From a virus (Duplodnaviria > Caudoviricetes): a stretch of 64,000 nucleotides of DNA. A program made the position numbers and the translations under genes. The notes under the pieces were generated by a model. It ran no database searches, was not told the origin of the DNA, and worked only from the letters and a program-made list of their open reading frames with translations. Positions 16,475 through 60,092 of this stretch are shown here, piece after piece. The stretch's first letter is position 1, and every line of letters begins with the position of its first letter. The DNA is taken from IMG/VR virus record IMGVR_UViG_3300002026_000124, positions 8,176 to 72,175 of that record; one strand, written 5' to 3'.

Positions 16475-16568
16475 CAGGAAGTGAGCGAGAGGTTGAAGCT
16501 ACTGGTCTTGGAAACCAGTCACGGCACAAAGGCGTTGTCGTGCGTGGGTTCGAACCCCACCTTCCTGA
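16475..16568 (+). tRNA. tRNA(TGG) with long variable arm
   Basis: CAGGAAG/CTTCCTG acceptor, CTGGT-CTTGGAA-ACCAG, about 25-nt variable arm. Confidence 0.8.
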
Positions 16569-16638
16569 CATGTGGACTGGTTAGAATTTACATACAAGGT
16601 CGTCCGTAATTGGAAATGATGCGTAGGAAATTCAACAT

Positions 16639-16713
16639 GGTGGGTATAGCTTAGTTGGTTAAAGCGTCTGATTGTGGTTCAGAAGACCGTGGGTTCGAAC
16701 CCCACTATCCACC
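16639..16713 (+). tRNA. tRNA-His(GTG)
   Basis: G-1, loop TT-GTG-GT, C73. Confidence 0.92.
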
Positions 16714-16721
16714 CTTTTTTT

Positions 16722-16797
16722 CGAGTAGTTGGGGAGTTGGTCACCCCGCCACATTTGGGATGTGGAGAACTCGCAGGTTCGAATCCTGCCTACTCGA
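16722..16797 (+). tRNA. tRNA-Pro(TGG)
   Basis: CCACA-TTTGGGA-TGTGG, C1:G72, A73. Confidence 0.9.
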
Positions 16798-16799
16798 CT

Positions 16800-16874
16800 G
16801 TGTTAGGCGTAGATGTTGGCATCTTCACTTGGCTGTGAACCAAGGCTTCGGGGGTTCGATTCCCCTCTAACACC
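16800..16874 (+). tRNA. tRNA-His(GTG)
   Basis: CTTGG-CTGTGAA-CCAAG, C73; no encoded G-1. Confidence 0.8.
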
Positions 16875-16966
16875 TAAAAGCGTGATAAAAGAGTTTATCA
16901 CGTTTATATGTGATTGAATATAAAATTTACTAATCAGCTTATATTATATTCAATCACATATAATAC

Positions 16967-17039
16967 TGTCTCGTGGTGTAATTGGCAACATGTTTGGCTC
17001 TGAACCAAAAGAGTAGGGGTTCGAAACCCTTCGAGACAA
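16967..17039 (+). tRNA. tRNA-Gln(CTG)
   Basis: TTTGG-CTCTGAA-CCAAA, U1:A72. Confidence 0.88.
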
Positions 17040-17044
17040 CATAT

Positions 17045-17125
17045 TATCCTTTGGCAGAATGGTCATTGCATCGCCCTTTGAAGGCGACACCGAGAGGTTT
17101 GCAGGTTCGAGTCCTGCAGGGATAA
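17045..17125 (+). tRNA. tRNA-Gln(TTG) with long variable arm
   Basis: TCGCC-CTTTGAA-GGCGA; variable hairpin ACC-GAGA-GGT; U1:A72. Confidence 0.82.
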
Positions 17126-17242
17126 CAAAAAGTTTTTGGAAATCTTGTATTTATTATTATCTTTGCATAAATATTGCTGGTATAATAACACGTTGTTATA
17201 GAATAGTACACGATGCATACTATCGCCAACATTTTTTAATAT

Positions 17243-17315
17243 TGTCCTGTGGTGTAATTGGCAACACGTCTGGTTTTGGTCCAGAAGAGTTCAGGTTCGA
17301 GACCTGACGGGACAA
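17243..17315 (+). tRNA. tRNA-Gln(TTG)
   Basis: TCTGG-TTTTGGT-CCAGA, U1:A72. Confidence 0.9.
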
Positions 17316-17467
17316 CAAATTTATTATTATGGGAAAATTAAGAGTTGGAAACAAGGAAAATTCTTTACTTAATGGTGAATGGGCAGGTCATGTTAGAAAA
17401 GATGGTAAGGAATGGACTGCAAGAAAACGCAGAAACCTTGACAAAGAAATAATTAAAAAGGAAAGCA

Positions 17468-17890
17468 ATGAGTTATAATTTATTCTTAGATGACTACAGA
17501 TTTCCAAAGGAAACTGTTGATTACATGTTTATTCCAATCTACACTAGTGAAGAATGGATAATCGTCAGGAATTACTATGCCTTTATTACAATAATTCAAA
17601 AGAAAGGTCTTCCGGATATCATTTCTTTCGACCACGACCTTGCAGATGTTCATTATAAGAATCAGGTTTTCGATTATAATGATGAAACCCTGGAAAAAAC
17701 CGGATATCATTGTGCAAAATGGCTCATTGACTATTGTCTCGATAATAATTTAGAAGTTCCCACAAGAATATTAATACATTCAATGAATCCTTACGGGACA
17801 CAGAATATCAAATCAGTTTTCGAAACCTACTTCAAGGTTTATGGTAAAGAATATAGTCCAATTAGCATTACCCCAAGCATGCGTAGATAA
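17468..17890 (+). CDS. cyclic-phosphate-processing receiver-like domain protein
   Basis: LFLDDYRFP...ISFDHDL...IHSMNP pattern. Confidence 0.65.
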   Translation: MSYNLFLDDYRFPKETVDYMFIPIYTSEEWIIVRNYYAFITIIQKKGLPDIISFDHDLADVHYKNQVFDYNDETLEKTGYHCAKWLIDYCLDNNLEVPTRILIHSMNPYGTQNIKSVFETYFKVYGKEYSPISITPSMRR

Positions 17891-17980
17891 TTGTTTTTAA
17901 TGTCTTTGCAGCTTAAGTCCCAATCTTTTAAATAAAAGGATAGTATTTATATAAAATAAGTACATAATAAAATATCAATT

Positions 17981-19150
17981 ATGAAAAAAGATAGTAAAGT
18001 AAGACTTTTCGAAGTCATGGGCAGATTAGACAAAACGTTTAAACCAGTTCTTAACGAATGGAATTTCGATAAGAAAAAAGATGACGATTCCGATGATAAA
18101 GAGGAAAAAGAAGAAAAGGACGAAAAACCAAAAGGTAAAACACAGTTTAATTTTGATAAAAAAGAAGATAAAGAAACTGAGAAACATGAAGATTCTGAAA
18201 CTCCTGAAGAATTGAAAGAAGAAGATGCGCCAAAAGCTAAGATACCTGTTAATGCAATTGCAAAAGTAGGTGGAAAAATTAATGAGTCTTTGCCTGTAGA
18301 TGAAAAATATAATAAATGGGGTCAATCTCAAGATGCTTGGGCAGATATTGAAAATGGTAAACCCTCAATTGGAAAAGAATTACAGAAAAAAGTAAATCTT
18401 GATAAAAAGGGCGAACTTGGTAGCGGAAGTGGTGATTCTCACGTACCCGAATATTATTACTCATATGATTCAGATGACCCAATTTCAAACGTTAATGGCT
18501 ATACCCAACGTCAAATTGATGCTAAAAATCAACAGTGGAGAGATAATATGTCACGCAATATGAGAGGGTCAATGGGTGATGAAGATGGTATGTATGAAAA
18601 TAAAAAGATTAAATTGGAAAAGAGTAAAGTAAGACTTTTCGAAGTTATGCAAAGAGTAACACCAAATTTTACTGGTAAAGCATTAAATGAAAGAGACGAA
18701 GAATTTTGGGCACAAGAAAAAAATGCAGGTGATGGTAATGCATATTCAAACACTAATCGTTATGAAACCGAAAATGGTCAAATGATTCCAGTTAATAAAT
18801 ATGATGAATTTGAACACGGTAAAATTTTGGGAACATATGATAGTAATGGTAATAAAATTGGAGACCCGAATTTACCTAAATCAATAATAGAACCTAAAAA
18901 AGAACCAACACCAGATGAAATAACACAAACTAATGACGATAGTGTGAAAATTACTAGCGCCCTAATTCAAAATGGTTTCTTTAATTCAAGTGGTAGTAGT
19001 GATAAATTCGTTAAACCGTATGACCAAGGACCGAATTGGCATGGCTGGAGTGAAATGGATAAATTTTTAAAGGATGGTGCTCAAAAGGGTTTGTGGTCAG
19101 AAGAGAGTGCTAGAAAATATAGCGAAAACGTGTGGCGTTCATACGATTAA
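17981..19150 (+). CDS. acidic protein with two LFEVM motifs
   Basis: RLFEVMGRLDKTF and RLFEVMQRVTPNF; late motif 17943-17950. Confidence 0.7.
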   Translation: MKKDSKVRLFEVMGRLDKTFKPVLNEWNFDKKKDDDSDDKEEKEEKDEKPKGKTQFNFDKKEDKETEKHEDSETPEELKEEDAPKAKIPVNAIAKVGGKINESLPVDEKYNKWGQSQDAWADIENGKPSIGKELQKKVNLDKKGELGSGSGDSHVPEYYYSYDSDDPISNVNGYTQRQIDAKNQQWRDNMSRNMRGSMGDEDGMYENKKIKLEKSKVRLFEVMQRVTPNFTGKALNERDEEFWAQEKNAGDGNAYSNTNRYETENGQMIPVNKYDEFEHGKILGTYDSNGNKIGDPNLPKSIIEPKKEPTPDEITQTNDDSVKITSALIQNGFFNSSGSSDKFVKPYDQGPNWHGWSEMDKFLKDGAQKGLWSEESARKYSENVWRSYD

Positions 19151-19190
19151 AATAAAAAAATAAAAATATTTTAATTTTTTTTCGAAAAAG

Positions 19191-19221
19191 TTTGTATTTA
19201 TCAAAAATGTCTCTATCTTTG
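19191..19221 (+). promoter_or_regulatory. Bacteroidota-type promoter of tRNA operon 2
   Basis: TTTG (19191-94), 19-nt spacer, TATCTTTG (19214-21). Confidence 0.75.
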
Positions 19222-19253
19222 CAGAGAATTTAATTAGTGAAAACAATAAAGTT

Positions 19254-19367
19254 ATGAAAAATTTACTCAACATATTATCAGTAGTCCTAGTGGATGCGCT
19301 CTTATGGGCAGCGGATGAGGATATGGTATATCGTGTCGGGTCGAAAGATACTGGAGTAGGTTATTAA
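19254..19367 (+). CDS. attenuator leader peptide 2 (Val/Leu/Asp/Ala/Trp/Glu/Met)
   Basis: MKNLLNILSVVLVDALLWAADEDMVYRVGSKDTGVGY*. Confidence 0.85.
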   Translation: MKNLLNILSVVLVDALLWAADEDMVYRVGSKDTGVGY

Positions 19368-19387
19368 TAACTGAAACAATAAAAACG

Positions 19388-19417
19388 AAACCCGACCCGA
19401 AAGAGTCGGGTTTTTTT
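19388..19417 (+). terminator. attenuator terminator 2
   Basis: AAACCCGAC-CCGAAAGA-GTCGGGTTT plus T-run; competing strand GTCGGGTCG at 19335-19343. Confidence 0.85.
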
Positions 19418-19443
19418 ATTGTTCTTTGACATGTTGGAAATTT

Positions 19444-19514
19444 GGTCTATTAGGGTATGGGTATCCTTGGTGGTTGTCGCCCACCAGAATCGAGTTCGAG
19501 TCTCGAATAGACCG
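19444..19514 (+). tRNA. tRNA-Asp(GTC)
   Basis: GGTGG-TTGTCGC-CCACC, G73. Confidence 0.85.
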
Positions 19515-19664
19515 CTAAACATTTGATTGTCGGGTTATTACTCAGAGGGTTTTAACTTACGAAGATAGACGTGTTAGTATAATAAGTACACTTGCCTTAA
19601 ATAAGTAGGAAGTTGTAACATGAAAAGGTTATCACACGTAACAAGAACGTCAAATGTTTTTAAC

Positions 19665-19734
19665 GGGGTCGTAGTTTAATGGTTAGAATACCGCACTGTC
19701 TATGCGGGGAAGGGGTTCGAATCCCACGGCTTCG
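19665..19734 (+). tRNA. tRNA-Asp(GTC), weak T-stem
   Basis: CCGCA-CTGTCTA-TGCGG; T-stem has only about 3 bp. Confidence 0.6.
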
Positions 19735-19867
19735 GCAAAATTTAAATTTATGAAAAAGAATAAGTCGTCCGAAAATACCGGACAGTTAAAATCAAAAGTT
19801 TGCTTTAAAGTAATTTCTAAAGAGGAATTAAAGAAAAACAGAAGTAATGCATATGATTACTTAATTT

Positions 19868-19992
19868 AATCTACCGATAATCTACCGTTATAACAGTAAA
19901 AAGTGCAATATGTTGCACAATCTACCGATAATCTACCGATAATCTACCGATAATTACCGTTATAACAGTAAAAAGTGCAATATGGTGCACAA
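19868..19992. repeat. AATCTACCGAT tandem repeats and duplicated palindromic unit
   Basis: Several AATCTACCGAT copies; two copies of TACCGTTATAACAGTAAAAAGTGCAATATG(T/G)TGCACA. Confidence 0.85.
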
Positions 19993-19996
19993 AAAC

Positions 19997-20080
19997 GCAG
20001 CATTATACAAGCGGTCAAAGTAGCAAGTCCTTCAAACTTGCATCTTCGGATTTCGAGGGGTTCGAATCCCCCATGCTGTA
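19997..20080 (+). tRNA. tRNA(TTC, Glu) with long variable arm and C33
   Basis: CAAGT-CCTTCAA-ACTTG; variable hairpin ATC-TTCG-GAT. Confidence 0.75.
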
Positions 20081-20131
20081 CCTTGACTTTTCTGTACCAT
20101 AGGACTATTTATAATAAAATATTATACTCCT

Positions 20132-20776
20132 ATGGCACGAAAAGAAAAAAAATATCACTTTATTTATAAAACAATAAACATCATAAATAATAAGTTTTAT
20201 ATTGGTATGCATTCAACAGACAATTTGAATGATGGATATGTTGGTAGCGGAACAAGACTTTGGTATTCAATAAATAAATATGGTAGGGAAAATCATAGAT
20301 TGGAAATACTTGAATTTCATGAAACACGAATTATATTAAAAGAACGTGAAAAGAATTTAGTAAATGAGGATTTATTGAAAAATCCTATGTGCATGAACAT
20401 AAAGATTGGTGGTGAAGGTGGATTAAATGGTCTTTCACAAGAATCAATTAAAAAAATACGTAAGGGTGCATCTGATTTCATGAAAATGAAGTGGAATGAA
20501 CCAGAATTTAGAAATATGTGTTCTCAACGTTCTATAATTAAAATGAAAGAAAATCATAGACTTGGTAAAATGAGATATGATACGTTTATTGGTAAATCTC
20601 ATAGTGAAGAAACAAGAGAACTTATGAAAGTAGTTCATAAGGGAATGGGTATTGGTTCTACAAATTCTCAATTCGGTACTTGTTGGATAACTAAGTGTGG
20701 CGTAAATAAAAAAATTAATAATAATGATTTGTCCTTATATATTAGTGATGGTTGGTGTAAGGGTAGAGTCATATAA
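20132..20776 (+). CDS. GIY-YIG (Seg-like) homing endonuclease
   Basis: FIYKTINIINNKFYIGMHS...GYVGSG; NUMOD3-like GKSHSEETR. Confidence 0.88.
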   Translation: MARKEKKYHFIYKTINIINNKFYIGMHSTDNLNDGYVGSGTRLWYSINKYGRENHRLEILEFHETRIILKEREKNLVNEDLLKNPMCMNIKIGGEGGLNGLSQESIKKIRKGASDFMKMKWNEPEFRNMCSQRSIIKMKENHRLGKMRYDTFIGKSHSEETRELMKVVHKGMGIGSTNSQFGTCWITKCGVNKKINNNDLSLYISDGWCKGRVI

Positions 20777-20777
20777 T

Positions 20778-20849
20778 GGTCCGTTCGTCTAACGGTTAGG
20801 ACGGCAGGTTTTCATCCTGTTAATAGGGTTTCGATTACCCTACGGACTA
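20778..20849 (+). tRNA. tRNA-Glu(TTC)
   Basis: GCAGG-TTTTCAT-CCTGT. Confidence 0.9.
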
Positions 20850-20856
20850 CTAAAAT

Positions 20857-20929
20857 TGCGTGTTGTGGAAGTTGGCTCTCCGGACAGAATCATAATCTGT
20901 AGACACTGGTTCAAATCCAGTACACGCAA
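20857..20929 (+). tRNA. tRNA(CAT), Met or Ile2
   Basis: ACAGA-ATCATAA-TCTGT. Confidence 0.8.
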
Positions 20930-20936
20930 CAATATT

Positions 20937-21011
20937 GCTCTCTTAACTCAGTTGGTTCAGAGTGTCACGCTTACAACGTGAAGGTCGGGGGTTCGACTCC
21001 CTCAGAGAGCA
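20937..21011 (+). tRNA. tRNA-Val(TAC)
   Basis: TCACG-CTTACAA-CGTGA. Confidence 0.92.
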
Positions 21012-21208
21012 CAAATGCCGTAAGTCTGGATAAAATTCCTTAAAGGGAAACTGGAGTAGCGAATAACTTAAAGCGAAGTGGTTTCGTGATAGACGGTTGT
21101 GATGAAAAGTTAGTCACTCATTAGTCGCAGGGTAGAATGGTGTAAGAATGGGAGCACGTTTGCGATAAGCAAAAAGACGAAAGGTTCGAATCCGAAATAC
21201 CCCTTAAT

Positions 21209-21283
21209 AGTCCCTTAGTTTAGTTGGTAAAAACGTCTGGCTTACATCCAGAAGATGCACTGGTTCGAATCCAGTAGGGACTA
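21209..21283 (+). tRNA. tRNA-Val(TAC)
   Basis: TCTGG-CTTACAT-CCAGA. Confidence 0.9.
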
Positions 21284-21478
21284 CTTTTGACATACGGTTT
21301 AGGACCGTTATAGCTTCGGCTATAAAGGGGGTGGGATGTTCGCTACTGACCACCCCTTTACAAAAAACGTTTAATTTTGCATAGTTATTCTTATTAATTT
21401 AAACTATCTGTGCAAATTTTATCGGTTGTAGAGGCGATAAGCATAGTTTATCGGTTGTAGAGACGATAAAATTTAAAT

Positions 21479-21560
21479 ACGGGTATAGTCCAACGGTAGG
21501 ACGCTCTCTGTCCAAGGGGAGAAATAGGCTGCAGTCAGGGTTCAATTCCCCTTACCCGTG
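21479..21560 (+). tRNA. atypical tRNA, ambiguous anticodon (GTC or TCC), long variable arm
   Basis: ACGGGTA/TACCCGT acceptor, G73, irregular anticodon loop, variable hairpin GGCT-GC-AGTC. Confidence 0.6.
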
Positions 21561-21620
21561 CAAAAAATAATTATTATCCTTGTATTATATATTAACTGCA
21601 TATACTAAGATAATAAATAT

Positions 21621-21702
21621 CTCGCAGTGTCGTAATTGGTAGCCGGGACAGTCTAAGAAGCTGTTGCCTTCGGGTGTGTGGGTTCGAGTCCCACTTGCGA
21701 GA
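21621..21702 (+). tRNA. tRNA-Leu(AAG)
   Basis: ACAGT-CTAAGAA-GCTGT, class II arm, A73. Confidence 0.88.
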
Positions 21703-21709
21703 CGAATAT

Positions 21710-21765
21710 GGGGATGTGATGAAATTGGCGATACATGCCAGACTTAGAATCTGGCGCTAATAAAC
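21710..21765 (+). pseudogene. truncated tRNA-Leu(TAG), 5' part
   Basis: Acceptor 5' strand, D arm and CCAGA-CTTAGAA-TCTGG present; no T arm before the next tRNA. Confidence 0.65.
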
Positions 21766-21777
21766 TGGCTTCACTTT

Positions 21778-21854
21778 GGGGCAGTAGTGACAATTGGCTA
21801 ACACGACAGATTTGCACTCTGTAAATGGGGTATCATACATCCCCTGCTCCACCA
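21778..21854 (+). tRNA. tRNA-Ala(TGC), aberrant T-loop
   Basis: G3:U70, A73, CCA; T-loop reads ATCATAC. Confidence 0.7.
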
Positions 21855-21923
21855 CAACATTGGTTTCGAAAACCAACGTCTCCACTTTTCCAGAAAACCA
21901 AGTATTTATAATAAAGAAATATT

Positions 21924-22742
21924 GTGAATACTTGGAAAACTAATAGAAAAACAATTTTAATTAATTGTGAAAATTGTGGAAATGAATTCAAAAAAACATT
22001 ATCTGAATATAATCGTTCAGAAAAATTAAATAAAAAACATTTTTGTTCATTAAAATGTAATAATGAATCTAAAAAGATTAAACTAAAATTCTGTTTACAA
22101 TGTAATGAAGAGTTTATTCCCGATAAAAATAAAACTAAGTTCTGTTCACATTCTTGTAACGCAAAATATAATAATAAAAATAGAAAGGGTATTAAATACA
22201 ATATAAGTGAAAATGGTTTAATTGGATTAAGGGAATCGTATAAAAATAATTTCGGATATGATATTATAAAATTTAGAAATAACTATTATCAATCACAGAA
22301 TTATTGTAAAGAATGTAATGAACCTATTCCATATGAAAAAAAGAATCATGTTTTTTGTAATCGGGATTGTAAAAGAACATATGATAGAAAGAATTTAACT
22401 GAATATCAAAAATACTATAAAGATTGTCAATTTAAATTTGGTTTATCAGACTATCCAAATGAATTTGATTTCGAATTGATTAAAACACATGGTTGGTATC
22501 AACCAAAAAATCATGGCAATAACTTAGGTGGAATTAGTAGAGACCATATGATTTCAGTAAAATATGGATATGAAAATAATATTAGTTCTGAGATAATTAG
22601 TCATCCTGCCAATTGTCAATTGATGATTCATAATGAGAATATTAGTAAATATAAGAATTGTTCAATAACATTAGAAGAACTAATGATTAAAATTGATAAT
22701 TGGAATGAAAAATATTCACAAATAACAATGGGTTTAACATAG
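21924..22742 (+). CDS. HNH homing endonuclease with Zn-finger repeats
   Basis: CxxC...FCSxxC repeats; C-terminal SRDHMIS...HPANCQLMIHNEN. Confidence 0.8.
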   Translation: MNTWKTNRKTILINCENCGNEFKKTLSEYNRSEKLNKKHFCSLKCNNESKKIKLKFCLQCNEEFIPDKNKTKFCSHSCNAKYNNKNRKGIKYNISENGLIGLRESYKNNFGYDIIKFRNNYYQSQNYCKECNEPIPYEKKNHVFCNRDCKRTYDRKNLTEYQKYYKDCQFKFGLSDYPNEFDFELIKTHGWYQPKNHGNNLGGISRDHMISVKYGYENNISSEIISHPANCQLMIHNENISKYKNCSITLEELMIKIDNWNEKYSQITMGLT

Positions 22743-22811: not shown

Positions 22812-22884
22812 GCCCTGTTGACGTAATTGGCAACCGTATTGGTCTTAAAAGCCAAGTTTCTCAGTTCGAATCTGAGGCGGGGTA
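22812..22884 (+). tRNA. tRNA-Leu(TAA) lacking the long variable arm
   Basis: TTGGT-CTTAAAA-GCCAA; 4-nt variable loop GTTT; A73. Confidence 0.8.
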
Positions 22885-22920
22885 CTATTTAAAAATTTTA
22901 TAGTATTTATGATAAAAACT

Positions 22921-29617: not shown

Positions 29618-30048
29618 TGGCTATATCAATTAATTGGGGAACTAAAGTAATATATGTACCAAAATCAGATTTGACTTCATTGGGTGGAAACATATATGAA
29701 CTCGATTTAGACTGGTTTAGATTGGAACTAAAATCTTTGGAGGATGGTGAAGAAGGCATAGTGTTTCCCGATACACATACACATAATTCACCTGTTACCC
29801 TTGGTGGTGCAACGTATGCACAGGTTATTGAATTTATAAATGGATATACAATAACTTTTGAAGATGGACAATATGCAGTAAAGGCGGTTGGTGCTAATAG
29901 CAATGTTGCTGACGTTACTAATGTTAATCAGGTTTCATTAAGAACCTCTAACTCAGCAGGATTGATTGTTGTGACATCCGGCTCTGGTGTTACCGAACAA
30001 GACAAATTAGATATTGCCAACAGAGTTTGGAGTAAAACATTACCATAA
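29617..30048 (+). CDS. putative virion protein
   Basis: MAISINWGTKVIYVPK; coupled in late operon. Confidence 0.55.
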   Translation: MAISINWGTKVIYVPKSDLTSLGGNIYELDLDWFRLELKSLEDGEEGIVFPDTHTHNSPVTLGGATYAQVIEFINGYTITFEDGQYAVKAVGANSNVADVTNVNQVSLRTSNSAGLIVVTSGSGVTEQDKLDIANRVWSKTLP

Positions 30049-30773
30049 TGACAACAGGTGAGAGACTATTATCAATATCATCACTTTCTAGTGGTACTAC
30101 ACTTGACTTATTTATGAATATCAGTGGAGGTACTTCATTAAATTATCCCGAATTAATATATGTTGATATAACAAATTGTAGTGCAATTGGTAGTGATGAT
30201 GGTCAATTAGAAATTACCGCAAGTGGTGGCACAGCTCCATACACATATTCAATTGGTGGTGCATATCAAAGTAGTAACATTTTTACCGGATTATCTGCGG
30301 GAACATACAGCATTTCGGTTAAAGACTATGCTTCATTAATTGATAGTATTGGTGGAATTAAATTAACTGTCCCTAGTTCGGGTCCACCATCAACAGTAAT
30401 ACCGTTTATTTATAGTTTAATAATTACTGATTTAACTCAAAATAATTCATTAGATGGTAGTATTAAGGTATTTGCTAGTGGTGGTACTATGCCATACACA
30501 TATTCAATTAATGATAATCCTTATCAAGTAAGTAATAATTTCTCAGGTTTACCTGCAGGTGATTTTAAAATTAATGTTAAAGATGCGGATGGGTTAATTG
30601 GTGGTTTATCTGGAATTAAAGTGAGTTCGCAAACATTAGTTAGTGGGGGTAGTGGTTGGGGTGGTGGTAGAAAATTCGACAATCAACGCTATAAAACTAA
30701 AGTCAATGTTAAGAATATAAAAATTAGTGATACCGATTTAAATGAAAGTATTAAAGTTAGGGTAACGATTTAG
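30048..30773 (+). CDS. SprB-repeat protein
   Basis: Two DG-x-I-x-ASGGTxPYTYSI repeats typical of Bacteroidota SprB repeats. Confidence 0.75.
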   Translation: MTTGERLLSISSLSSGTTLDLFMNISGGTSLNYPELIYVDITNCSAIGSDDGQLEITASGGTAPYTYSIGGAYQSSNIFTGLSAGTYSISVKDYASLIDSIGGIKLTVPSSGPPSTVIPFIYSLIITDLTQNNSLDGSIKVFASGGTMPYTYSINDNPYQVSNNFSGLPAGDFKINVKDADGLIGGLSGIKVSSQTLVSGGSGWGGGRKFDNQRYKTKVNVKNIKISDTDLNESIKVRVTI

Positions 30774-33173: not shown

Positions 33174-33455
33174 GGGGGCGACTTGGATTTGATTAGATGT
33201 CAGATTGGTAAAGTAAGCAAGTCTTAGTTGAATCAGACTAAGTAAAAAAGAGTGTTGAACTCGCAATGGTAGCGTAGGGAATAAACAAACCAACAAAAAC
33301 TTCTGGTGAAGTAAGTTATGAATAAGTGAGTAACGAATCCCGAAGAGAAACTAAAATGTAAACTATTCTATTTTGCTTGTTTAGAAAAACGAGATAAACT
33401 TGTAGAAAACCTATTAATCACATTTAAGACGAGGGTTCGAATCCCTCCGCTTCCA
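33174..33455 (+). ncRNA. ssrA: tmRNA
   Basis: 5' GGGGGCGACTTGGATTTGA; 3' GAGGG-TTCGAAT-CCCTC-CGCTTCC-A; G3:U70; internal tag ORF ending GEVSYE*. Confidence 0.88.
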
Positions 33456-33481
33456 CTTAATACATTAAAAATCAATTAGTT

Positions 33482-39503: not shown

Positions 39504-39583
39504 AAAATGTATTATTTATGTTTATATCATTAATTTTAACATAAATACTGTAACATAATCATAAATTATTCGTATAATTGCAC

Positions 39584-40675
39584 ATGAACTCATTTTTAGA
39601 AAAAGTCGATTGGAATGTATTAAATACATATATCGACAATAGCTTAATTATCTCAAACAAGCATCCAGAATATGATATTTGGATTCTTAATTATTCGCCA
39701 AAGGTTCAGTCTAAGAAATTTTGGGATGAATATACTTTGTCATGCCGTGGACTCGTTATTGATGCCGAAGGCAATATCTTAGCACGACCATTTCAAAAAT
39801 TCAAGAACTATGAAGAATATGACCCATCAGAATTCGATTGGTCTCAGGACTTCGATGTGTTTGAAAAAATGGATGGCTCATTAATTATCTTATTTTACTA
39901 CGAACCACGTATGGAATGGATAATTGCGTCAAGGGGTTCTTTCGCATCTGAACAAGCGATTGAAGGAAGAAAAATGATTGAGTCTAATACATATAATCAT
40001 TTAGACGTTAAAGAAACATATTTGTTCGAAATTCTGTATCCAGAAAATCGCATTGTTGTCGATTACGGTAATAGAAGAGAATTAGTATTATTAGGTAGAG
40101 TTAACACTTTAGATGGTTTTGAATTATATTATGACGATTTAGTTTCAATGCATTCAAAATATTTTACCGTTGTAAAGAAATTTAATATTAAGTCTTTCGT
40201 TGAATTAAGAGAATTGATAACTAAGGGTGAAGAAAACAAAGAAGGATTTGTAATTAGGTTTTACAGTGGTTTAAGAATTAAGATGAAATTTGCTGAATAT
40301 GTTAGACTACACGGAATCATAACAAATGTCTCAAATCTAGTTGTTTGGGAACATTTGAGAGACAAATATGAATTTGATGAATTGCTTGATAGAGTACCTG
40401 ACGAGTTTTATCAGTGGCTTAATAAAACAGTAGCAACATTAAATAATGAATTCTACAATATTGAGAGATTGGCGTTGAAGGAATTTATTAGGATTTATTA
40501 TAATGACGACACTGTTATTCGTAAAGATTTTGCAATGGAAGCACAAAAAAGTGCTTATCGTTCAATTTTATTTAAAATTTACGATAAAAATAGTTACGAT
40601 GAAATCATATGGAATATGATAAGACCTGAATATAGTAAACCATTTAAGGATGGTTATGTAGATGAAACTTTATGA
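39584..40675 (+). CDS. RNA ligase 1 (T4 Rnl1-like)
   Basis: CRGLV, EKMDGSL motif I, FEIL, EGFV, IKMKF. Confidence 0.88.
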   Translation: MNSFLEKVDWNVLNTYIDNSLIISNKHPEYDIWILNYSPKVQSKKFWDEYTLSCRGLVIDAEGNILARPFQKFKNYEEYDPSEFDWSQDFDVFEKMDGSLIILFYYEPRMEWIIASRGSFASEQAIEGRKMIESNTYNHLDVKETYLFEILYPENRIVVDYGNRRELVLLGRVNTLDGFELYYDDLVSMHSKYFTVVKKFNIKSFVELRELITKGEENKEGFVIRFYSGLRIKMKFAEYVRLHGIITNVSNLVVWEHLRDKYEFDELLDRVPDEFYQWLNKTVATLNNEFYNIERLALKEFIRIYYNDDTVIRKDFAMEAQKSAYRSILFKIYDKNSYDEIIWNMIRPEYSKPFKDGYVDETL

Positions 40676-43841: not shown

Positions 43842-43931
43842 GAGAGTACGGCAACGAGTGGTGTTGCGCAGAGGCGCATAATCTCTGTCCCAGTGGGGTG
43901 AACATAGGTGGTTCGAATCCATCTGCTCTCA
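43842..43931 (+). tRNA. tRNA(CAT) with long variable arm and G33
   Basis: AGAGG-CGCATAA-TCTCT; about 20-nt variable region. Confidence 0.7.
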
Positions 43932-43936
43932 CAAAT

Positions 43937-44071: not shown

Positions 44072-44142
44072 GCACCCGTAGCAAAGGGGATATGCCTCTG
44101 GCTTTTAACCAGATGACACAGGTTCGATTCCTGTCGGGTGCA
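44072..44142 (+). tRNA. tRNA-Lys(TTT)
   Basis: TCTGG-CTTTTAA-CCAGA. Confidence 0.88.
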
Positions 44143-44197
44143 CTTTTAGGGTTTTTTACTACTTTTTAAGTCCAATGTCCCAATAAAAAGTAGACAA

Positions 44198-44282
44198 GTA
44201 TTCGTAGCAAAGTGGTTATGCTCCTGCCTTTTAAGCAGAGTGTCTAAACAACACAACGTGGGTTCGATTCCCACCGAATACA
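44198..44282 (+). tRNA. tRNA-Lys(TTT) with long variable arm
   Basis: CTGC-CTTTTAA-GCAG; variable hairpin GTGT-CTAAACA-ACAC. Confidence 0.82.
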
Positions 44283-44287
44283 CAAAT

Positions 44288-53931: not shown

Positions 53932-53941
53932 TTGAAAAAAG

Positions 53942-54143: not shown

Positions 54144-54166
54144 AATAAACACAAAAAAATTAAAAA

Positions 54167-54197: not shown

Positions 54198-54213
54198 ATG
54201 TTCTTTTTATACT

Positions 54214-54284
54214 GTCGGGATAATTTAGTGGTAGAATGCTTGTTTGGTATTCAAGCAACACCAGTTCGATTCTGGTTCTCGGCT
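54214..54284 (+). tRNA. tRNA-Thr(GGT)
   Basis: Loop TTGGTAT. Confidence 0.82.
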
Positions 54285-54372
54285 CAAAATATAACTCTTA
54301 CGGGTTATAAATACAAAATATAACCTCTACAGGTTATACTCCGTAAGATGTTCATTGACATGCTGGTTTTAT

Positions 54373-54447
54373 GCACGGATGGTCGAGTGGTCAAAGGCAA
54401 CGCTCTGCAAAAGCGTACAATCGTGGGTTCGAATCCCACTCCGTGCT
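54373..54447 (+). tRNA. tRNA-Cys(GCA)
   Basis: ACGCT-CTGCAAA-AGCGT, U73. Confidence 0.92.
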
Positions 54448-54494
54448 CTGGGTCGTTTTCGTACTTTCTCAGTATTTATCTGAAAGTACAAATT

Positions 54495-55157
54495 ATGGCA
54501 AGAAAAGAAAAACAATATCATTTCATTTATAAGACAACTAATAAGTTGAATGGTAAATATTATTACGGAATGCATTCCACAAATAATTTAAATGATGGAT
54601 ATTATGGTTCAGGAAAAAGATTGAGACGTTCTTTGAATAAATATGGTAAAGAAAATCATGTTGTTGAATATCTTGAATTTCTACCCGATAGAAAATCGCT
54701 AATTGAACGTGAAAAAGAAATTGTTAATTTAAATGAAATTGCGAAAGAAGATTGTATGAATCTAATGGTTGGTGGAAAAGGTGGTTTTATTTCAGAACAG
54801 GCATTGAAGGGAAGATATGCTGCAGATAAAATTTTGATTGAAAAATATGGTGAGAATTGGCGAAGAGTTATTTTTAGAAAATATTTTGATGGTTTAAGTG
54901 ATGAAGAAAAAGAATTAATTTATCAGAAAATGAAAAAAACTAATGAAATAAATGGATATGACTATAAAGGTTTTTTAGGAAAAAAACATTTACCTGAAAC
55001 CATAGAAAAAATGAAAAAAAGTAAGAATGTTGGGATAAATAATTCACAATTTGATACTTGCTGGATTTATTCTGATGAATATAGTAAACCACAAAAAATT
55101 AAAAAATTTCAATTAAATGAATTTATTAATCGTGGTTGGCGAAAGGGAAGAAAATAA
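54495..55157 (+). CDS. GIY-YIG (Seg-like) homing endonuclease
   Basis: MARKEKQYHFIYKTTN...YYGMHST...GYYGSG; paralogue of 20132-20776. Confidence 0.88.
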   Translation: MARKEKQYHFIYKTTNKLNGKYYYGMHSTNNLNDGYYGSGKRLRRSLNKYGKENHVVEYLEFLPDRKSLIEREKEIVNLNEIAKEDCMNLMVGGKGGFISEQALKGRYAADKILIEKYGENWRRVIFRKYFDGLSDEEKELIYQKMKKTNEINGYDYKGFLGKKHLPETIEKMKKSKNVGINNSQFDTCWIYSDEYSKPQKIKKFQLNEFINRGWRKGRK

Positions 55158-55160
55158 TAC

Positions 55161-55241
55161 TGTGACGTGGATGAATGGTTTAGTCACCACGCTGATACCG
55201 TGGGTCGCAAGACAACGTGGGTTCGAGTCCCACCGTCACAA
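55161..55241 (+). tRNA. tRNA-Ile(GAT) with long variable arm
   Basis: CCACG-CTGATAC-CGTGG; variable hairpin GTC-GCAA-GAC. Confidence 0.85.
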
Positions 55242-55273
55242 CAAAGCAATCAAAATTTTAATCATTCACTAAT

Positions 55274-55358
55274 GGAAGAGTGTCCGAGTGGTTTATGGTG
55301 GCAGTCTTGAAAACTGCTGGATGTAAAAGTCCCGTGGGTTCGAATCCTACCTCTTCCG
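55274..55358 (+). tRNA. tRNA-Ser(TGA)
   Basis: GCAGT-CTTGAAA-ACTGC, G73. Confidence 0.93.
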
Positions 55359-55397
55359 CACTATTTAATTGGAAATTGGGTAGAATATTTAAAAAAA

Positions 55398-55482
55398 GGA
55401 GGGGGGACAGGATGGTAATGTGCCTGTTTGCTAAACAGAGGCTGGGATAATACCCAAGAGTGGTCGGTACACTCTCTCTCCG
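55398..55482 (+). tRNA. tRNA-Ser(GCT), aberrant T-loop
   Basis: Loop TTGCTAA; T arm GAGTG-GTCGGTA-CACTC. Confidence 0.75.
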
Positions 55483-55483
55483 C

Positions 55484-55930
55484 AAAAAAGGTTAGTAATC
55501 CAGAAGCCTAACCAGCCGAAGGGTGAAGTTTCCTTAATGAAATTGATACAAACAAGCACCTGTGGTGGGATTGCAATGTGTTGATAAATTAGTTAAAAAC
55601 TCATTTCGACTTTAATATTGGAACATGAAGATTTATGGTGCACCTTATCTTCTGGAAGGTTCGAAACCTTTGGAGTCGGCTAGAATCACATGCAGTGGAT
55701 ATCATCATGTGGTTTGTGCACCAAAAAAGAAGTCATGACTCTTTGAGGTGTAAAAGTTCTGGGATGCATAAGAGGCTGACCTAATGTTCTGTTGGAATTT
55801 GAGTGTTAGTAGATTTATTTACACGTACTTGGCAATACGATTAACACGATAGTTCTCCGAGACATTTTAAGTTACCTGCAATGGTATTCGGGAGACGTGA
55901 GTAGAAGGCTCACCCCAGAACTTATTTTTA
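55484..55930 (+). ncRNA. candidate large structured ncRNA
   Basis: No long ORF; long-range helices 55754-63/55914-23 and 55636-43/55716-23. Confidence 0.45.
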
Positions 55931-55932
55931 AT

Positions 55933-56008
55933 GCATCGGTAGTGCTATAATGGTTAAAACGGCTGTCTGTTAAACAGCGAGATGCAGGTTCGACTCCTGC
56001 TCGATGCG
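55933..56008 (+). tRNA. tRNA-Asn(GTT)
   Basis: GCTGT-CTGTTAA-ACAGC, G73. Confidence 0.85.
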
Positions 56009-56163
56009 CAAAAAGGGACAAGTAAATGGAACAAACCTTGTTTCCGCAGGGTGAGTTTGCCGTCTAAAGCACGGACATTTGCATCGGAATTGTCCTTTAT
56101 AGGTCGGGTTGCAGAGGGCGCAATTCGGGTAACTGCCTCACAAGGTAGCCTATATAATATTAT

Positions 56164-56235
56164 GGAGATATAGCTGAGTTGGTTTAGCGGTGGCGTGAAG
56201 TCCCACAGACACAGGTTCGAATCCTGTTATTTCCA
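56164..56235 (+). tRNA. tRNA-Phe(GAA)
   Basis: Loop GTGAAGT, one stem mismatch. Confidence 0.75.
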
Positions 56236-56326
56236 CTTGAGTGCGATAAATAATGTTTCGCAGCATATTATTAATGCATCCCTGTTAATATGTTGTGGGT
56301 GAGATTCCCACGCTTAAAAGAATTAT

Positions 56327-56399
56327 GGTGCAGTAGCAAAGTTGGTCAACGCATCGGACTGAAAATCCGACTATGGTGGTTCGAATCCACCCTGCACCA
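56327..56399 (+). tRNA. tRNA-Phe(GAA)
   Basis: TCGGA-CTGAAAA-TCCGA. Confidence 0.9.
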
Positions 56400-56406
56400 C
56401 AGTAAT

Positions 56407-56481
56407 GCGGGTATAGCACAACGGTTAGTGCGTCTGGCTTCCAACCAGAGGATGTCGGTTCGATTCCGATTACCTGCTCCA
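56407..56481 (+). tRNA. tRNA-Gly(TCC)
   Basis: TCTGG-CTTCCAA-CCAGA, U73, CCA. Confidence 0.93.
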
Positions 56482-56483
56482 TT

Positions 56484-56555
56484 GCACACTATAACTTAAT
56501 TGGTAAAGTGCTTGATTTGTAATCAAGATATGCGGTTCGAGTCCGATAGAGTGCT
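56484..56555 (+). tRNA. tRNA-Thr(TGT), imperfect stems
   Basis: CTTGA-TTTGTAA-TCAAG. Confidence 0.7.
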
Positions 56556-56641
56556 CAACAATGTCTTCCACACCTCTAAATTATGTGCATCTGGAAGGCT
56601 ACTTGTCGAACCCAATCATAGTACTGTGATTGGGTTCATAT

Positions 56642-56714
56642 GGTGATGTGGCGCAACGGTCAGCGCAGGACGCTTATATCGTCAAGGTTGTGGGTTCGAG
56701 TCCCACCTTCACTA
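56642..56714 (+). tRNA. tRNA-Ile(TAT)
   Basis: GACG-CTTATAT-CGTC, A73. Confidence 0.85.
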
Positions 56715-56729
56715 CAAAATTAATAACAT

Positions 56730-56818
56730 GGGAGTGTAGCTGATTAGGCTTTAGCTGCAGACTGTTAATCTGTGAATGAAAAATTGAAATAAAGTAGGTT
56801 CGAATCCTTCCTCTCCCG
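56730..56818 (+). tRNA. tRNA-Asn(GTT) with 20-nt A-rich variable region
   Basis: GCAGA-CTGTTAA-TCTGT, G73. Confidence 0.78.
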
Positions 56819-56856
56819 CTCTAAATAATTGCAATATTCTTCGTATTTATGTTGGA

Positions 56857-57756
56857 ATGAATTACAAAAATTTACATACTATTATTAACGAAGAAATTCA
56901 GAACGTTTTAGATGAAACGTATAAAAGTGTTGACGAAATTAAAAAATTAGCGAATAATATTCTTATCACAACTGCTGAGAAAAATTTCGAAAAATATAAT
57001 ACTGACGGGTCATTCAGGTACATTTATGGTGTAAATGTAGACCAAATGGATTCAAATAAGTACGATGAAATAAAAAATTATGTTATTGAAAGTAATGTTC
57101 AAATATATTTCCAACCCAAAGACGATAAAGGTAGTAATAAAGCAGATTATAGCAATATTGTAACACATAAAGGTGAAAAGTATAATCCAAGAACTGAAAG
57201 AGATATTAACCTTTATTATGATTACAATAGATTTAAAGAAAAAATTGATGAAATTTTAATTGAACATGTAATTAGTAGAACTGATTTTTATTCTAAACTA
57301 TATTACGAATTCTACACATCTTTGGTTCACGAACTTCAACATTCTTATGACGATTATCGTAGTGGTGGTATGGCGTATAACACTCCTGAAAATAAGAATT
57401 ATAGGAAAAATTATTACCGGAAAATGGAAAATAATATTGTGAGAAGTCAAATTAATGACATGGAAATGTATAAGAAATATTTAAATCTACCCCACGAAAT
57501 ATGGGCGAGATTTTCACAAGCGATGATTAAGGTTCATTTTTATACTTGGGATATTGATAAATCAAGTGATACTCAAATCATATATTCTATGTATCCATTA
57601 AAACAGGTATTAAATGATTTCAGATATGCATTTGATAATTTTAAGGTTTTATCACCGGAAACACAAAAAAGACTCTATAGAAAAGTCTCACAATTCTGGC
57701 ATATTGAACAGGAAAAAATTAATGAGCTTAATAAGAATGGTGGTAATAAACCTTAA
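56857..57756 (+). CDS. zincin-like metallopeptidase with INEEI leader
   Basis: LVHELQH and downstream HE; late motif 56843-56850. Confidence 0.65.
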   Translation: MNYKNLHTIINEEIQNVLDETYKSVDEIKKLANNILITTAEKNFEKYNTDGSFRYIYGVNVDQMDSNKYDEIKNYVIESNVQIYFQPKDDKGSNKADYSNIVTHKGEKYNPRTERDINLYYDYNRFKEKIDEILIEHVISRTDFYSKLYYEFYTSLVHELQHSYDDYRSGGMAYNTPENKNYRKNYYRKMENNIVRSQINDMEMYKKYLNLPHEIWARFSQAMIKVHFYTWDIDKSSDTQIIYSMYPLKQVLNDFRYAFDNFKVLSPETQKRLYRKVSQFWHIEQEKINELNKNGGNKP

Positions 57757-57797
57757 ATTTCCCAATATTAATAATGTTTCTAATAGTTCTTAATAAT

Positions 57798-57869
57798 GCA
57801 CCGGTAACTCAGTGGTAGAGTGTCTGGCTGTTAACCAGAGAGTCGGGGGTTCGAATCCCTCTCGGTGCG
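57798..57869 (+). tRNA. tRNA-Asn(GTT)
   Basis: TCTGG-CTGTTAA-CCAGA, G73. Confidence 0.93.
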
Positions 57870-57940
57870 CAAAACACTTGCTAATTGAAAAATTTTAATT
57901 AACTTTACTACAAAATAATTTTAATTAAAATATAATAAAA

Positions 57941-58315
57941 ATGGAAGGTATGAGAATCAGAGGTAATAGAGAAACTAAAGTTGATAAAGCAAACTTAATT
58001 GAACAAATTAAACTGAATAAAAAAAATCATGTCAGGGAGTACGAAAAGGCAATTCTTGCTTATAAAGAAGAGGCACTAAATCAATTAAGTAAAGAGTTTA
58101 AGAGAGTTGAAAATGGTGCTCTTGACGCTAAATTGGATTTGATAACCCCAATCAATAATGCTAAAAACTACGATAAGATTATCGAAATGTTTGAATGGGA
58201 AGTTGAAGATTATGTCGTTTTGACACAAGCAGAATTCAATGAATATGTTCAGGACGAAACCGAATTTGCTAGACAAGCTAAATTCTCGAACACATTTTAC
58301 TCCAATTCAATTTAA
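57941..58315 (+). CDS. hypothetical protein
   Basis: 124 aa ORF. Confidence 0.6.
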   Translation: MEGMRIRGNRETKVDKANLIEQIKLNKKNHVREYEKAILAYKEEALNQLSKEFKRVENGALDAKLDLITPINNAKNYDKIIEMFEWEVEDYVVLTQAEFNEYVQDETEFARQAKFSNTFYSNSI

Positions 58316-58364
58316 ACATTGGTAACGTCAATATGAAATAAGAGTATTTATGTGAAAAAGAATT

Positions 58365-58583
58365 ATGAAAAAAATTTGGAATTTTATTATTAGTAACATT
58401 ATCATGACCATTAAATCGGCATGGTACGCAATTCTTGCAGCAATAATTGGAACAATCGTTGGAATTATCTGGGATTTTAATACCGGATTTTTCACGTTTT
58501 TTGGAATTTGCATTGCATTTGTATTATTCATTTGGGTTCGTCAATTATGGTGGTGGATTACTAAAACAGGTGATTACAAATGA
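58365..58583 (+). CDS. small membrane protein
   Basis: Two transmembrane-like segments. Confidence 0.6.
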   Translation: MKKIWNFIISNIIMTIKSAWYAILAAIIGTIVGIIWDFNTGFFTFFGICIAFVLFIWVRQLWWWITKTGDYK

Positions 58584-59098
58584 AAGTAACTATTTTAAAA
58601 AATAGAAGAAGACCATTTCCATTCTTTCGTTTTCCAAGTCTAACAATATTCAGGAGAACTAAATCTTATTCAATTAAAATAAGATTTATGTTCACTGAAT
58701 CGTGTTTTTATAAATTTAATGATGCTGACCAATATGACATAAACAAATTATTTGGCTTTAGCATTGGTTTACACCATAATAATTCATTTAGATTTGGTTG
58801 GAGACCCAATGCTGATTTAAGTAAAATGGAAATCGTTGGTTATGAATATCTTAATAAATTAAGAATTCCAACATTACCAATTTGTGAAGTTAAGGTTGGT
58901 AAGTGGTATGGTTACGAAATAAGATATAATGCTAAAACGAATTATATTGAATACACAGTGACTAGTGAAGATGAAAATTTTGGAATGCAACATCCGGTAA
59001 AACAAAAAAATAAAATATTTTTCGGATATAAATTGGGTTTGTATTTCGGTGGTAATAAAAAACCACCACATAAGATGATTTTTTATAGGAGAAGTTAA
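58580..59098 (+). CDS. hypothetical protein
   Basis: 172 aa coupled ORF. Confidence 0.6.
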   Translation: MKVTILKNRRRPFPFFRFPSLTIFRRTKSYSIKIRFMFTESCFYKFNDADQYDINKLFGFSIGLHHNNSFRFGWRPNADLSKMEIVGYEYLNKLRIPTLPICEVKVGKWYGYEIRYNAKTNYIEYTVTSEDENFGMQHPVKQKNKIFFGYKLGLYFGGNKKPPHKMIFYRRS

Positions 59099-59099
59099 T

Positions 59100-60008
59100 A
59101 TGGGATTTGATATCAATAGCAAAACTGGTCGTTGGATTGACGAATATGGATTAATGTTGGGGCATAACCCCGATTGGAATCCAAATGGTGATATGGGTAA
59201 GGGCGATTGTATTGGTACGGCATTAGATGCATATCTTGCATATGACTATAAACCATTTGTGAGAGCGGTAAAGGGTTGCTACGAGATTAAAGAAGACGAA
59301 AAAGGATTATATGTTGAGGGTTATAGACATCCAAGCTATAAGAATGATGATTATAACGACATGAGTCGAGACCATATTCTGAATACTTTGGTACTAATGA
59401 AACTTAGTGATGAAAAGGTTTATTTAAAGTTTTTATCCAAAAATTTAAGGTGGAGAATTTCTGATAGATATAAATTTACCATTGATTTGTGGTTATGGAT
59501 GAAAGGAATTACCGGAAATCGATTTGCGATGTTAGCATATTATATGGTCATTATCGTAAGTATGTTTTTCTCAATATTGTTGAATAAAATAATCTATTTG
59601 TTAGCGGGTATCAGTAAAGAAGTTCCACAAGACAAATATGTACAGTTTGACAGAAGTAAATTTTCTAAATTTCAATTATTTTTAATTGGAATAAGATTTC
59701 CGATGTATACATTATGTCAAATGTCTTTCATGCTATATGCCACACCCGATTCCCCTGGTAAATGGTTATTGAAAAAGATTTGCTTATGGGGAATTGATAA
59801 AGAAAATTTCTTATTGAGAATAATGTATGGTGGAAAGGTTAGTGCTGAAGATGTCTACAATTATAAATCAATGAGTAGCTGGCGTTGGAGCACATACTTA
59901 AATGAATTAAATGACAGGGATTTATACATTATCACTGACCCCAAAGAACTTGAAGCTAATGTACTTGATGTAGATTTGCTTAGAAAAATGTATGAAAAAT
60001 TAAAATAA
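59100..60008 (+). CDS. hypothetical protein
   Basis: 302 aa ORF. Confidence 0.6.
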   Translation: MGFDINSKTGRWIDEYGLMLGHNPDWNPNGDMGKGDCIGTALDAYLAYDYKPFVRAVKGCYEIKEDEKGLYVEGYRHPSYKNDDYNDMSRDHILNTLVLMKLSDEKVYLKFLSKNLRWRISDRYKFTIDLWLWMKGITGNRFAMLAYYMVIIVSMFFSILLNKIIYLLAGISKEVPQDKYVQFDRSKFSKFQLFLIGIRFPMYTLCQMSFMLYATPDSPGKWLLKKICLWGIDKENFLLRIMYGGKVSAEDVYNYKSMSSWRWSTYLNELNDRDLYIITDPKELEANVLDVDLLRKMYEKLK

Positions 60009-60009
60009 T

Positions 60010-60092
60010 GCCGATGTGGTTCAGGGGTCGACAACGCCAGTCTTGTAAACTGGAGACGTAAGTCCGCGCTGGTTCGAATCCAGCCATCGGCT
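60010..60092 (+). tRNA. tRNA-Thr(TGT) with long variable arm
   Basis: CCAGT-CTTGTAA-ACTGG; variable hairpin GAC-GTAA-GTC. Confidence 0.85.

Follow-up and report, generated by a model that had tools for sequence, protein, structure and literature searches.

A 64,000-nucleotide stretch of viral DNA (the window, comprising bases 8176–72175 of the single 72,175-bp viral contig IMGVR_UViG_3300002026_000124 in IMG/VR) contains, within its arrays of transfer RNA (tRNA) genes, a set of genes that combine class I anticodons with an enlarged variable region, which in most of them folds into an extra arm. A long variable arm is a textbook feature of Leu, Ser, Tyr and selenocysteine (Sec) tRNAs; against this restriction, one phage has a long arm on about one-fifth of its non-Leu/Ser/Tyr tRNAs. 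The design recurs in related phages and across many viral contigs that are unrelated, the hairpin being clearly under selection, and the acceptor ends match the amino acid of the anticodon. To judge from these sequence features, the long-armed genes are most likely functional cognate isoacceptors. The original prediction for this DNA, that it encodes a parallel, structurally altered tRNA set, is borne out in that the set is real, is conserved, stands alongside ordinary copies and keeps cognate acceptor determinants.

ARAGORN finds 47 tRNA genes in the window (48 with a relaxed threshold), every one on the + strand, and Rfam finds 45 tRNAs and one transfer-messenger RNA (tmRNA). Ten long-armed tRNAs with class I anticodons had been proposed; nine are ARAGORN genes that begin where they were expected to (82–95 nt), and eight of these are also found by Rfam, whereas the 'CAT' element at 43842 is called by neither. 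The ten loci are as follows.

16475–16569 (+): tRNA-Pro(UGG), 95 nt; Rfam 53.7 bits; arm fold −7.8 kcal/mol
17045–17126 (+): tRNA-Gln(UUG), 82 nt; class I Gln body with arm ACC-GAGA-GGU (z −4.1) and U1:A72; Rfam 57.4 bits
19997–20082 (+): tRNA-Glu(UUC)-like gene, 86 nt; called by ARAGORN only; lower confidence
21479–21561 (+): degenerate tRNA (GUC according to ARAGORN, 'Asp'), 83 nt; Rfam 35.3 bits
23765–23848 (+): tRNA-Trp(CCA), 84 nt; arm AGA-GAAA-UCU, G73; Rfam 55.2 bits; the only Trp tRNA of the contig
43842–43934 (+): tRNA-like 'CAT' gene; CAU in loop CGCAUAA (G33), C8, 5-bp D stem, arm CCC-AGUG-GGG
44198–44283 (+): tRNA-Lys(UUU), 86 nt; class I Lys body with inserted arm; Rfam 57.8 bits; paralogue of 44072–44143
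55161–55242 (+): tRNA-Ile(GAU), 82 nt; arm GUC-GCAA-GAC (z −5.2); Rfam 52.6 bits; the only GAU gene of the contig
56730–56819 (+): tRNA-Asn(GUU), 90 nt; 20-nt AU-rich variable region without a stable stem; G73; Rfam 45.6 bits
60010–60093 (+): tRNA-Thr(UGU), 84 nt; arm GAC-GUAA-GUC, G1:C72, U73; Rfam 58.7 bits

The variable region is 13–25 nt long in all nine genes called by ARAGORN. Eight of the ten loci match the Rfam tRNA model RF00005 with 35.3–58.7 bits (gathering threshold, 29 bits), and the surplus bases are placed in the variable region. When the variable regions are folded alone, hairpins form in the Pro, Gln, Trp, Lys, Ile and Thr genes (−1.9 to −7.8 kcal/mol; z −1.5 to −5.2). The description as long-armed therefore holds for these six; the arm of Glu is marginal, and neither Asn nor the gene at 21479 has a stable stem. 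In the ARAGORN models, these six genes and Asn have a 7-bp acceptor stem, a 5-bp T stem, a 7-nt anticodon loop with U33 and a GTTCRA T loop. The long-armed genes lie 1–15 nt from ordinary tRNAs in same-strand arrays. The expected short-armed copies with the same anticodon are present for Pro, Gln, Glu, Asp, Lys, Asn, Thr and CAT, but the contig holds none for Trp or Ile(GAT).

Three loci depart from this pattern. U33 is near-universal in tRNAs, and the exceptions in loop and stem structure are Glu, with C33, the gene at 21479, with a T stem of 3 bp, and the 43842 element, with G33. The Glu gene has a marginal 3-bp arm (AUC-UUCG-GAU), the loop CCUUCAA, a 4-bp T stem and a class-II-like D arm, and is absent from the RF00005 matches even at E ≤ 10. 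The gene at 21479 has a 16-nt unstructured variable region with no arm fold, a Gly-like acceptor stem and a Glu/Met-like body, and is possibly a pseudogene. The 43842 element has no RF00005 match at E ≤ 1 and no ARAGORN call; it folds as a cloverleaf (−31.2 kcal/mol) and is, on sequence comparison, a diverged copy of a conserved 87–90-nt Tyr(GUA) gene that has homologues in two related phages (G001 and G003).

Recurrence and covariation of the arm

Relatives were retrieved from IMG/VR with the terminase and the open reading frame (ORF) at 59100–60008 as queries. Two are complete, G003 (357 kb, with terminal repeats) and G004 (327 kb), and each has about 60 tRNA genes; given these sizes, the contig is about one-fifth of a jumbo phage genome of roughly 330–360 kb. 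Long-armed genes are found among the relatives for Gln(ttg) (87 nt in G003 and G004, with stems different from that of the window), Trp(cca) (83–84 nt in G003 and G005), Lys(ttt) and Lys(ctt) (83–85 nt in G003), Cys(gca) (82 nt in G001 and G003), Asn(gtt) (86–88 nt in G001 and G003), Thr(tgt) (85 nt in G003) and Pro(tgg) (85–90 nt in G004 and G005). Between relatives, the stems of the arm differ by compensatory changes (AGA/UCU versus CC/GG in Trp, GAC/GUC versus GAA/UUC in Thr, ACC/GGU versus CCCA/UGGG in Gln), while the loops remain GNRA, as in the Thr orthologue of G003 (GAA-GAAA-UUC). The Ile(GAU) gene is identical at 82 of 82 positions in G001, where its upstream flank cannot be aligned and the tRNA that follows (Ser) shows clear divergence. 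Long and short Trp genes swap for one another among close relatives. The odd C33 loop of the Glu gene at 19997 recurs in Glu genes of 74–77 nt in G003, G004 and G005; a Glu(UUC) subtype with the loop CCUUCAA or CCUUCAC is in this way kept in four related phages (the window, G003 at 253998, G004 at 104284 and G005 at 70491).

A wider survey of IMG/VR was made with a pattern in which the Trp anticodon loop is set unusually far from the T arm. At least 120 contigs match, and 73 of the 80 loci that were fetched hold a Trp(cca) gene of 81–90 nt, which places a long Trp gene on at least 73 further viral contigs. Together with the window and its relatives, 60 distinct long Trp sequences are available, and the arm folds in 54 of them, in most cases with a GAAA loop. 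When 14 of these long Trp genes are aligned without gaps, each of the three pairs of the arm shows two-sided changes and 92.9% of cells are paired; none of 500 shuffles reaches the covariation score of this arm. A covariance check across phages had been suggested as a means of telling real arms from random, unconserved ones, and by this measure the Trp arms covary far above chance, in addition to recurring in relatives. A second pattern (Lys/Asn/Thr/Ile) yields further long Asn, Lys, Thr and Ile genes with varied stems on unrelated contigs. This pattern also matched loci accidentally, via the D loops of ordinary tRNAs, and these loci serve as an unbiased viral sample: 14 of its 246 tRNAs with class I anticodons (about 6%) are at least 81 nt long, compared with 9 of 40 in the window.

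The variable region of the long Asn gene (56774–56793) is nearly identical in the tRNA-Asn of an unrelated contig (L315, IMGVR_UViG_3300008116_000067). Since the stems of the two tRNAs differ, the constraint on this region appears to be on sequence and not on pairing.

Outside the viral data, 185,579 prokaryote species (one genome each) were searched with the Trp pattern, and 13 of the first 80 matches are true long Trp genes, of which 8 lie in tRNA arrays. In blastn searches of cultured phages, neither the window Trp gene nor a common viral Trp type has a match; the D arm and anticodon stem of one common long Trp type recur in tRNA-Ser(UGA) genes, its best matches among cultured phages. As a separate observation, two isolates, Pelagibius sp. 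7325 (L235, 1918–2007) and Agrobacterium sp. rho-13.3 (L247, chromosome 2, 2592–2681), have solitary tRNAs of 90 nt with the anticodon CCA. These tRNAs have Ser-like bodies, arm stems of 5–6 bp, G73 and an encoded CCA end, and are candidates either for insertion of Ser at Trp codons or for prophage tRNAs.

Origins and identity elements

When the body (D arm, anticodon stem and T arm) and the acceptor stem are scored separately against the tRNA pool, the genes fall into two groups. The original prediction placed all of them on class II scaffolds, and this is supported for Pro, Glu, Trp, Ile and probably Asn, the D- and anticodon-arm bodies of which are class-II-like but joined to cognate acceptor stems, and for the 43842 element, which is Tyr-derived. 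It does not apply to Gln, Lys and Thr, which are class I bodies with a hairpin of about 10 nt inserted in the variable loop. The two groups are exemplified by Pro 16475, which has a body closest to long Trp/Ser and an acceptor closest to short Pro, and by Lys 44198, the nearest neighbours of which are Lys tRNAs. Because the 83-nt Lys(ctt) gene of G003 is the orthologue of a 73-nt Lys(ctt) gene in the window, its arm can be read as a plain insertion. An origin of the arm as a copy of the cognate anticodon hairpin was also considered and does not hold here, as the arm loops are 4-nt GNRA or UUCG loops, or unrelated 9-nt ones.

The genes resemble canonical class II tRNAs (Leu, Ser, Tyr) in the length of the variable region and, in six of the nine, its stem-loop; in Pro, Glu, Ile and many Trp genes, the D stem is additionally 3 bp and the D loop 11 nt long, and the anticodon loop reads C32-U33-NNN-A37-A38 (C33 in Glu 19997 itself). 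Unlike canonical class II tRNAs, they have class I anticodons, discriminators and 1:72 pairs, and their arms are shorter than those of Ser and leave three, not one or two, unpaired 3′ bases. The usual geometry is a stem of 5–7 bp with one unpaired 3′ base in Ser, 3–5 bp with two in Leu, 3 bp or fewer with three in Tyr, and 3–4 bp with three in the long genes with class I anticodons. Within the window set, only Pro 16475 has a Ser-like arm (a 7–8-bp stem with one unpaired 3′ base), along with a Ser-like D arm; its anticodon loop is CUUGGAA (A37), and its acceptor is of the Pro type (C1:G72, A73) with A2:U71 in addition.

Acceptor marks were compared between long and short genes over about 1,300 distinct phage tRNAs, and, for a given amino acid, long-armed and short-armed genes agree in base 73 and in the 1:72 pair. 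Long-armed genes have G73 in Trp (54 of 60) and Asn (8 of 8), U73 in Cys (7/7), C73 in His (9/10), A73 in Lys (11/11) and U1:A72 in Gln (3/4); in Pro, C1:G72 is found in three of four and A73 in all four. The marks named beforehand for the window genes (C1:G72 and A73 in Pro, U1:A72 in Gln, G73 in Trp and Asn) are all correct. The identity set of tRNA-Ser (an arm of 5–7 bp, about one unpaired 3′ base, G73 and G1:C72/G2:C71) is not found, Pro 16475 sharing only its arm. Nor is Leu, Ser or Tyr identity present in anticodon and acceptor; the anticodons are UGG, UUG, UUC, GUC, CCA, UUU, GAU, GUU and UGU.

For these amino acids, recognition by the host synthetases depends on the anticodon and acceptor end. 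The complete relatives have a CCA-adding enzyme and have no synthetase of the TrpRS/TyrRS family or of the Ser/Thr/Pro/His family, the two families searched, and, on this gene content, host enzymes must charge these tRNAs, for those two families at least. The swapping of long and short Trp genes among relatives fits equivalent decoding by the two forms and so points to functional cognate isoacceptors.

Possible roles of the arm

The explanation proposed here is that these are working tRNAs that decode normally and are charged normally by host synthetases, which would read the anticodon and acceptor end that the genes retain, and that the arm is favoured because it helps to evade host defence; we give this explanation an even chance. 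The arm is typically a short hairpin of 3–4 bp with a GNRA loop, one unpaired base on its 5′ side and three on its 3′ side, projecting from the tRNA core at a place where most of the relevant synthetases are not expected to need contact. It may have been acquired in two ways, either by insertion of a hairpin into a class I variable loop (Gln, Lys, Thr) or by the gain of a new anticodon and acceptor stem on a Ser/Tyr-type body (Pro, Glu, Trp, Ile, probably Asn, and 43842), and, once acquired, would be maintained by selection. The most likely benefit is a form of bet-hedging, in which a second isoacceptor of different shape is poorly handled by host tRNA nucleases or toxins.

The following window genes also enter the argument.

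20132–20776 (+), 21924–22742 (+), 54348–55157 (+) and 62258–62941 (+): four free-standing homing endonuclease genes (GIY-YIG/NUMOD and HNH types) within the tRNA arrays
22812–22885 (+): tRNA-Leu(UAA), only 74 nt, without a long arm; found by ARAGORN and by Rfam (45.8 bits)
39578–40675 (+): T4 Rnl1-type RNA ligase gene (Pfam PF09511, 73 bits; phrog_562, 224 bits), a tRNA-repair context

Resistance to host tRNA nucleases, as the original prediction suggested, is plausible by analogy with known systems. PARIS AriB targets the tRNAs for Lys(UUU), for Thr(UGU) and for Asn(GUU) (PMC12409363), and all three are in the long set; the T4 Rnl1-like ligase of the window is a further context for defence. 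In this respect, the genes resemble anti-defence phage tRNAs such as the tRNA-Lys/Thr/Asn of T5, which act against PARIS and duplicate host isoacceptors that include the same three (PMC11464382, PMC12409363). Retron-Eco7 cuts tRNA-Tyr in the variable loop, and the tRNA-Tyr of phage SP15 needs its longer variable loop for escape (PMC12673091). Known anti-defence tRNAs have either a few bases altered in the anticodon stem or the D loop or an existing arm made longer, whereas here, as seen in the genes, an arm is added to a class I tRNA. To our knowledge, such an addition is unreported among anti-defence phage tRNAs, and a literature search found no paper on long-armed phage tRNAs with class I anticodons.

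Loss of the arm may belong to the same picture. Short tRNA-Leu genes of 74–78 nt are present in every relative, and a pool of 74 distinct Leu tRNAs, drawn from the relatives and from the viral Trp-pattern loci, includes 27 short ones. Toxins that prefer long-armed tRNAs exist (bioRxiv 10.64898/2026.01.19.700257) and could explain the arm-less Leu genes. A more sweeping form of the explanation is offered tentatively: the arm would be an adaptive disguise that makes the tRNA a poor substrate for host nucleases or toxins that modify the 3′ end but leaves it acceptable to cognate synthetases, EF-Tu and the ribosome, arm-less Leu would be the mirror trick against toxins with a preference for long arms, such as MenT3 and probably AbiEii, and gain and loss of the arm would be a general means of counter-defence.

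Several observations weigh against the proposed explanation. The genes at 19997, 21479 and 43842 are weak or irregular, and Pro 16475, with its Ser-type arm and with A37 in place of G37, is of uncertain charging and frame fidelity. The arm is not essential, since in close relatives a long Trp gene can stand in the place of a short one and vice versa. We know of no nuclease that is blocked by an arm added to a class I tRNA. The motif of the AriB site, UAAUC (PMC12409363), shows no consistent loss in the long copies among the window tRNAs; it is present in the long Asn gene and absent from its short copies, the opposite of simple evasion. Given the toggling of the arm, the inconsistent AriB motif and the want of a known arm-blocked nuclease, a neutral relic is a serious rival. 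Here, the arm would be tolerated with no benefit of its own: the arrays turn over quickly by duplication, recombination (helped by homing endonuclease genes) and remoulding of anticodon and acceptor, and selection keeps only the hairpin foldable. This would account for the mixture of class-II-like bodies with cognate acceptors and class I bodies with insertions, for the tRNA-Ser(UGA) matches of a long Trp type, for the homing endonuclease genes in the arrays, for the roughly 6% of long genes in the unbiased viral sample, and for presence/absence switches between relatives, loss of the Leu arm being just as frequent. However, arms persist over very diverse phages with many compensatory changes where a useless 10-nt insert should vanish easily, long Trp is rare outside viral and array contexts in the 185,579 genomes, and Ile(GAU) is perfectly conserved, so that a relic, while possible, seems on balance the less probable account of the set.

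Two further explanations deny the genes a normal role in translation. Under one, suggested as an alternative in the original prediction, the arm recruits seryl-, leucyl- or tyrosyl-tRNA synthetase (SerRS, LeuRS, TyrRS), and Ser, Leu or Tyr is inserted at Pro, Trp, Lys and other codons, as with allo-tRNAs and nev-tRNAs. SerRS and LeuRS disregard the anticodon (PMC5389517, PMC3333845), G73 is common to Trp, Asn and tRNA-Ser, and Pro 16475 has the Ser-like arm and D arm described above. Yet acceptor stems and discriminators fit the amino acid of the anticodon and not Ser, Leu or Tyr, and most arms, with 3–4 bp and three unpaired 3′ bases, are unlike those of Ser. An 8/4 or 9/3 acceptor/T layout characterises allo-tRNAs, which also have a D arm of the Sec-like kind and are predicted to have Ser identity (Mukai et al., Nucleic Acids Res 2017, PMC5389517), whereas the layout here is 7/5 in the ARAGORN models, with cognate acceptor marks. 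Nematode nev-tRNAs, with anticodons for Gly or Ile, similarly combine class II shape with class I anticodons, but are eukaryotic Leu-type bodies charged with leucine, whereas here acceptor identity tracks the anticodon (Hamashima et al. 2012, PMC3333845). Moreover, long Trp and Ile(GAU) are the only copies of the phage, replacing short ones in relatives, and constant Trp-to-Ser errors would be costly. Mischarging is accordingly unlikely for individual genes, except perhaps for Pro 16475, and highly improbable as an explanation of the set. That the genes are pseudogenes, or tRNA-like RNAs with a role outside translation (decoys, processing signals), is improbable too. It would suit 21479 (weak T stem, no arm), 43842 (G33 and C8, missed by both finders) and Glu 19997 (C33, missed by Rfam), but in the other seven the cloverleaf is intact, the anticodon loop has 7 nt and U33, the T loop fits the consensus and the scores are 45–59 bits, and these genes are conserved with covariation.

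If charging of the long-armed tRNAs is normal, the extra arm would be tolerated by the host synthetases for Trp, Lys, Asn, Thr, Ile, Gln, Pro, Cys and His at the least, which would be of use to tRNA engineering and to annotation rules. If the arm shields tRNAs from immunity that targets them, it would represent a new principle of counter-defence and a way to track down the corresponding nucleases of the host.

Phage and neighbouring genes

The window has about 32% G+C and encodes a T4-type large terminase, a tail-fibre chaperone domain and a ribonucleotide reductase. In a Megablast search of cultured phages with 20 kb of the window, the sole match is a 55-nt stretch of tRNA-Gln in Cellulophaga phages. 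A protein with SprB repeats, a repeat of Bacteroidota gliding-motility adhesins, is encoded at 30048–30773 (+) and gives a weak hint that the host belongs to the Bacteroidota. The tmRNA lies between tRNA arrays.

33174–33458 (+): tmRNA; Rfam RF00023, 69.5 bits over the full model; no ARAGORN call

Five of nine long-armed genes lie beside homing endonuclease genes or other ORFs, compared with about 10 of 33 short ones, and this preference is not convincing. The homing endonuclease gene at 54348–55157 stops 4 nt upstream of the long Ile(GAU) gene.

Two further tRNA genes are unusual in other ways. A tRNA with a 6-nt anticodon loop lies beside Gly(gcc) at 62046–62117 (+); ARAGORN reports it as '???' with the two-base anticodon 'tc', and Rfam gives it 40.8 bits. 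A tRNA-Ile(UAU) gene at 56642–56715 (+) would allow AUA to be read without lysidine; G001 has this gene with 96% conservation, and G003 has it too.

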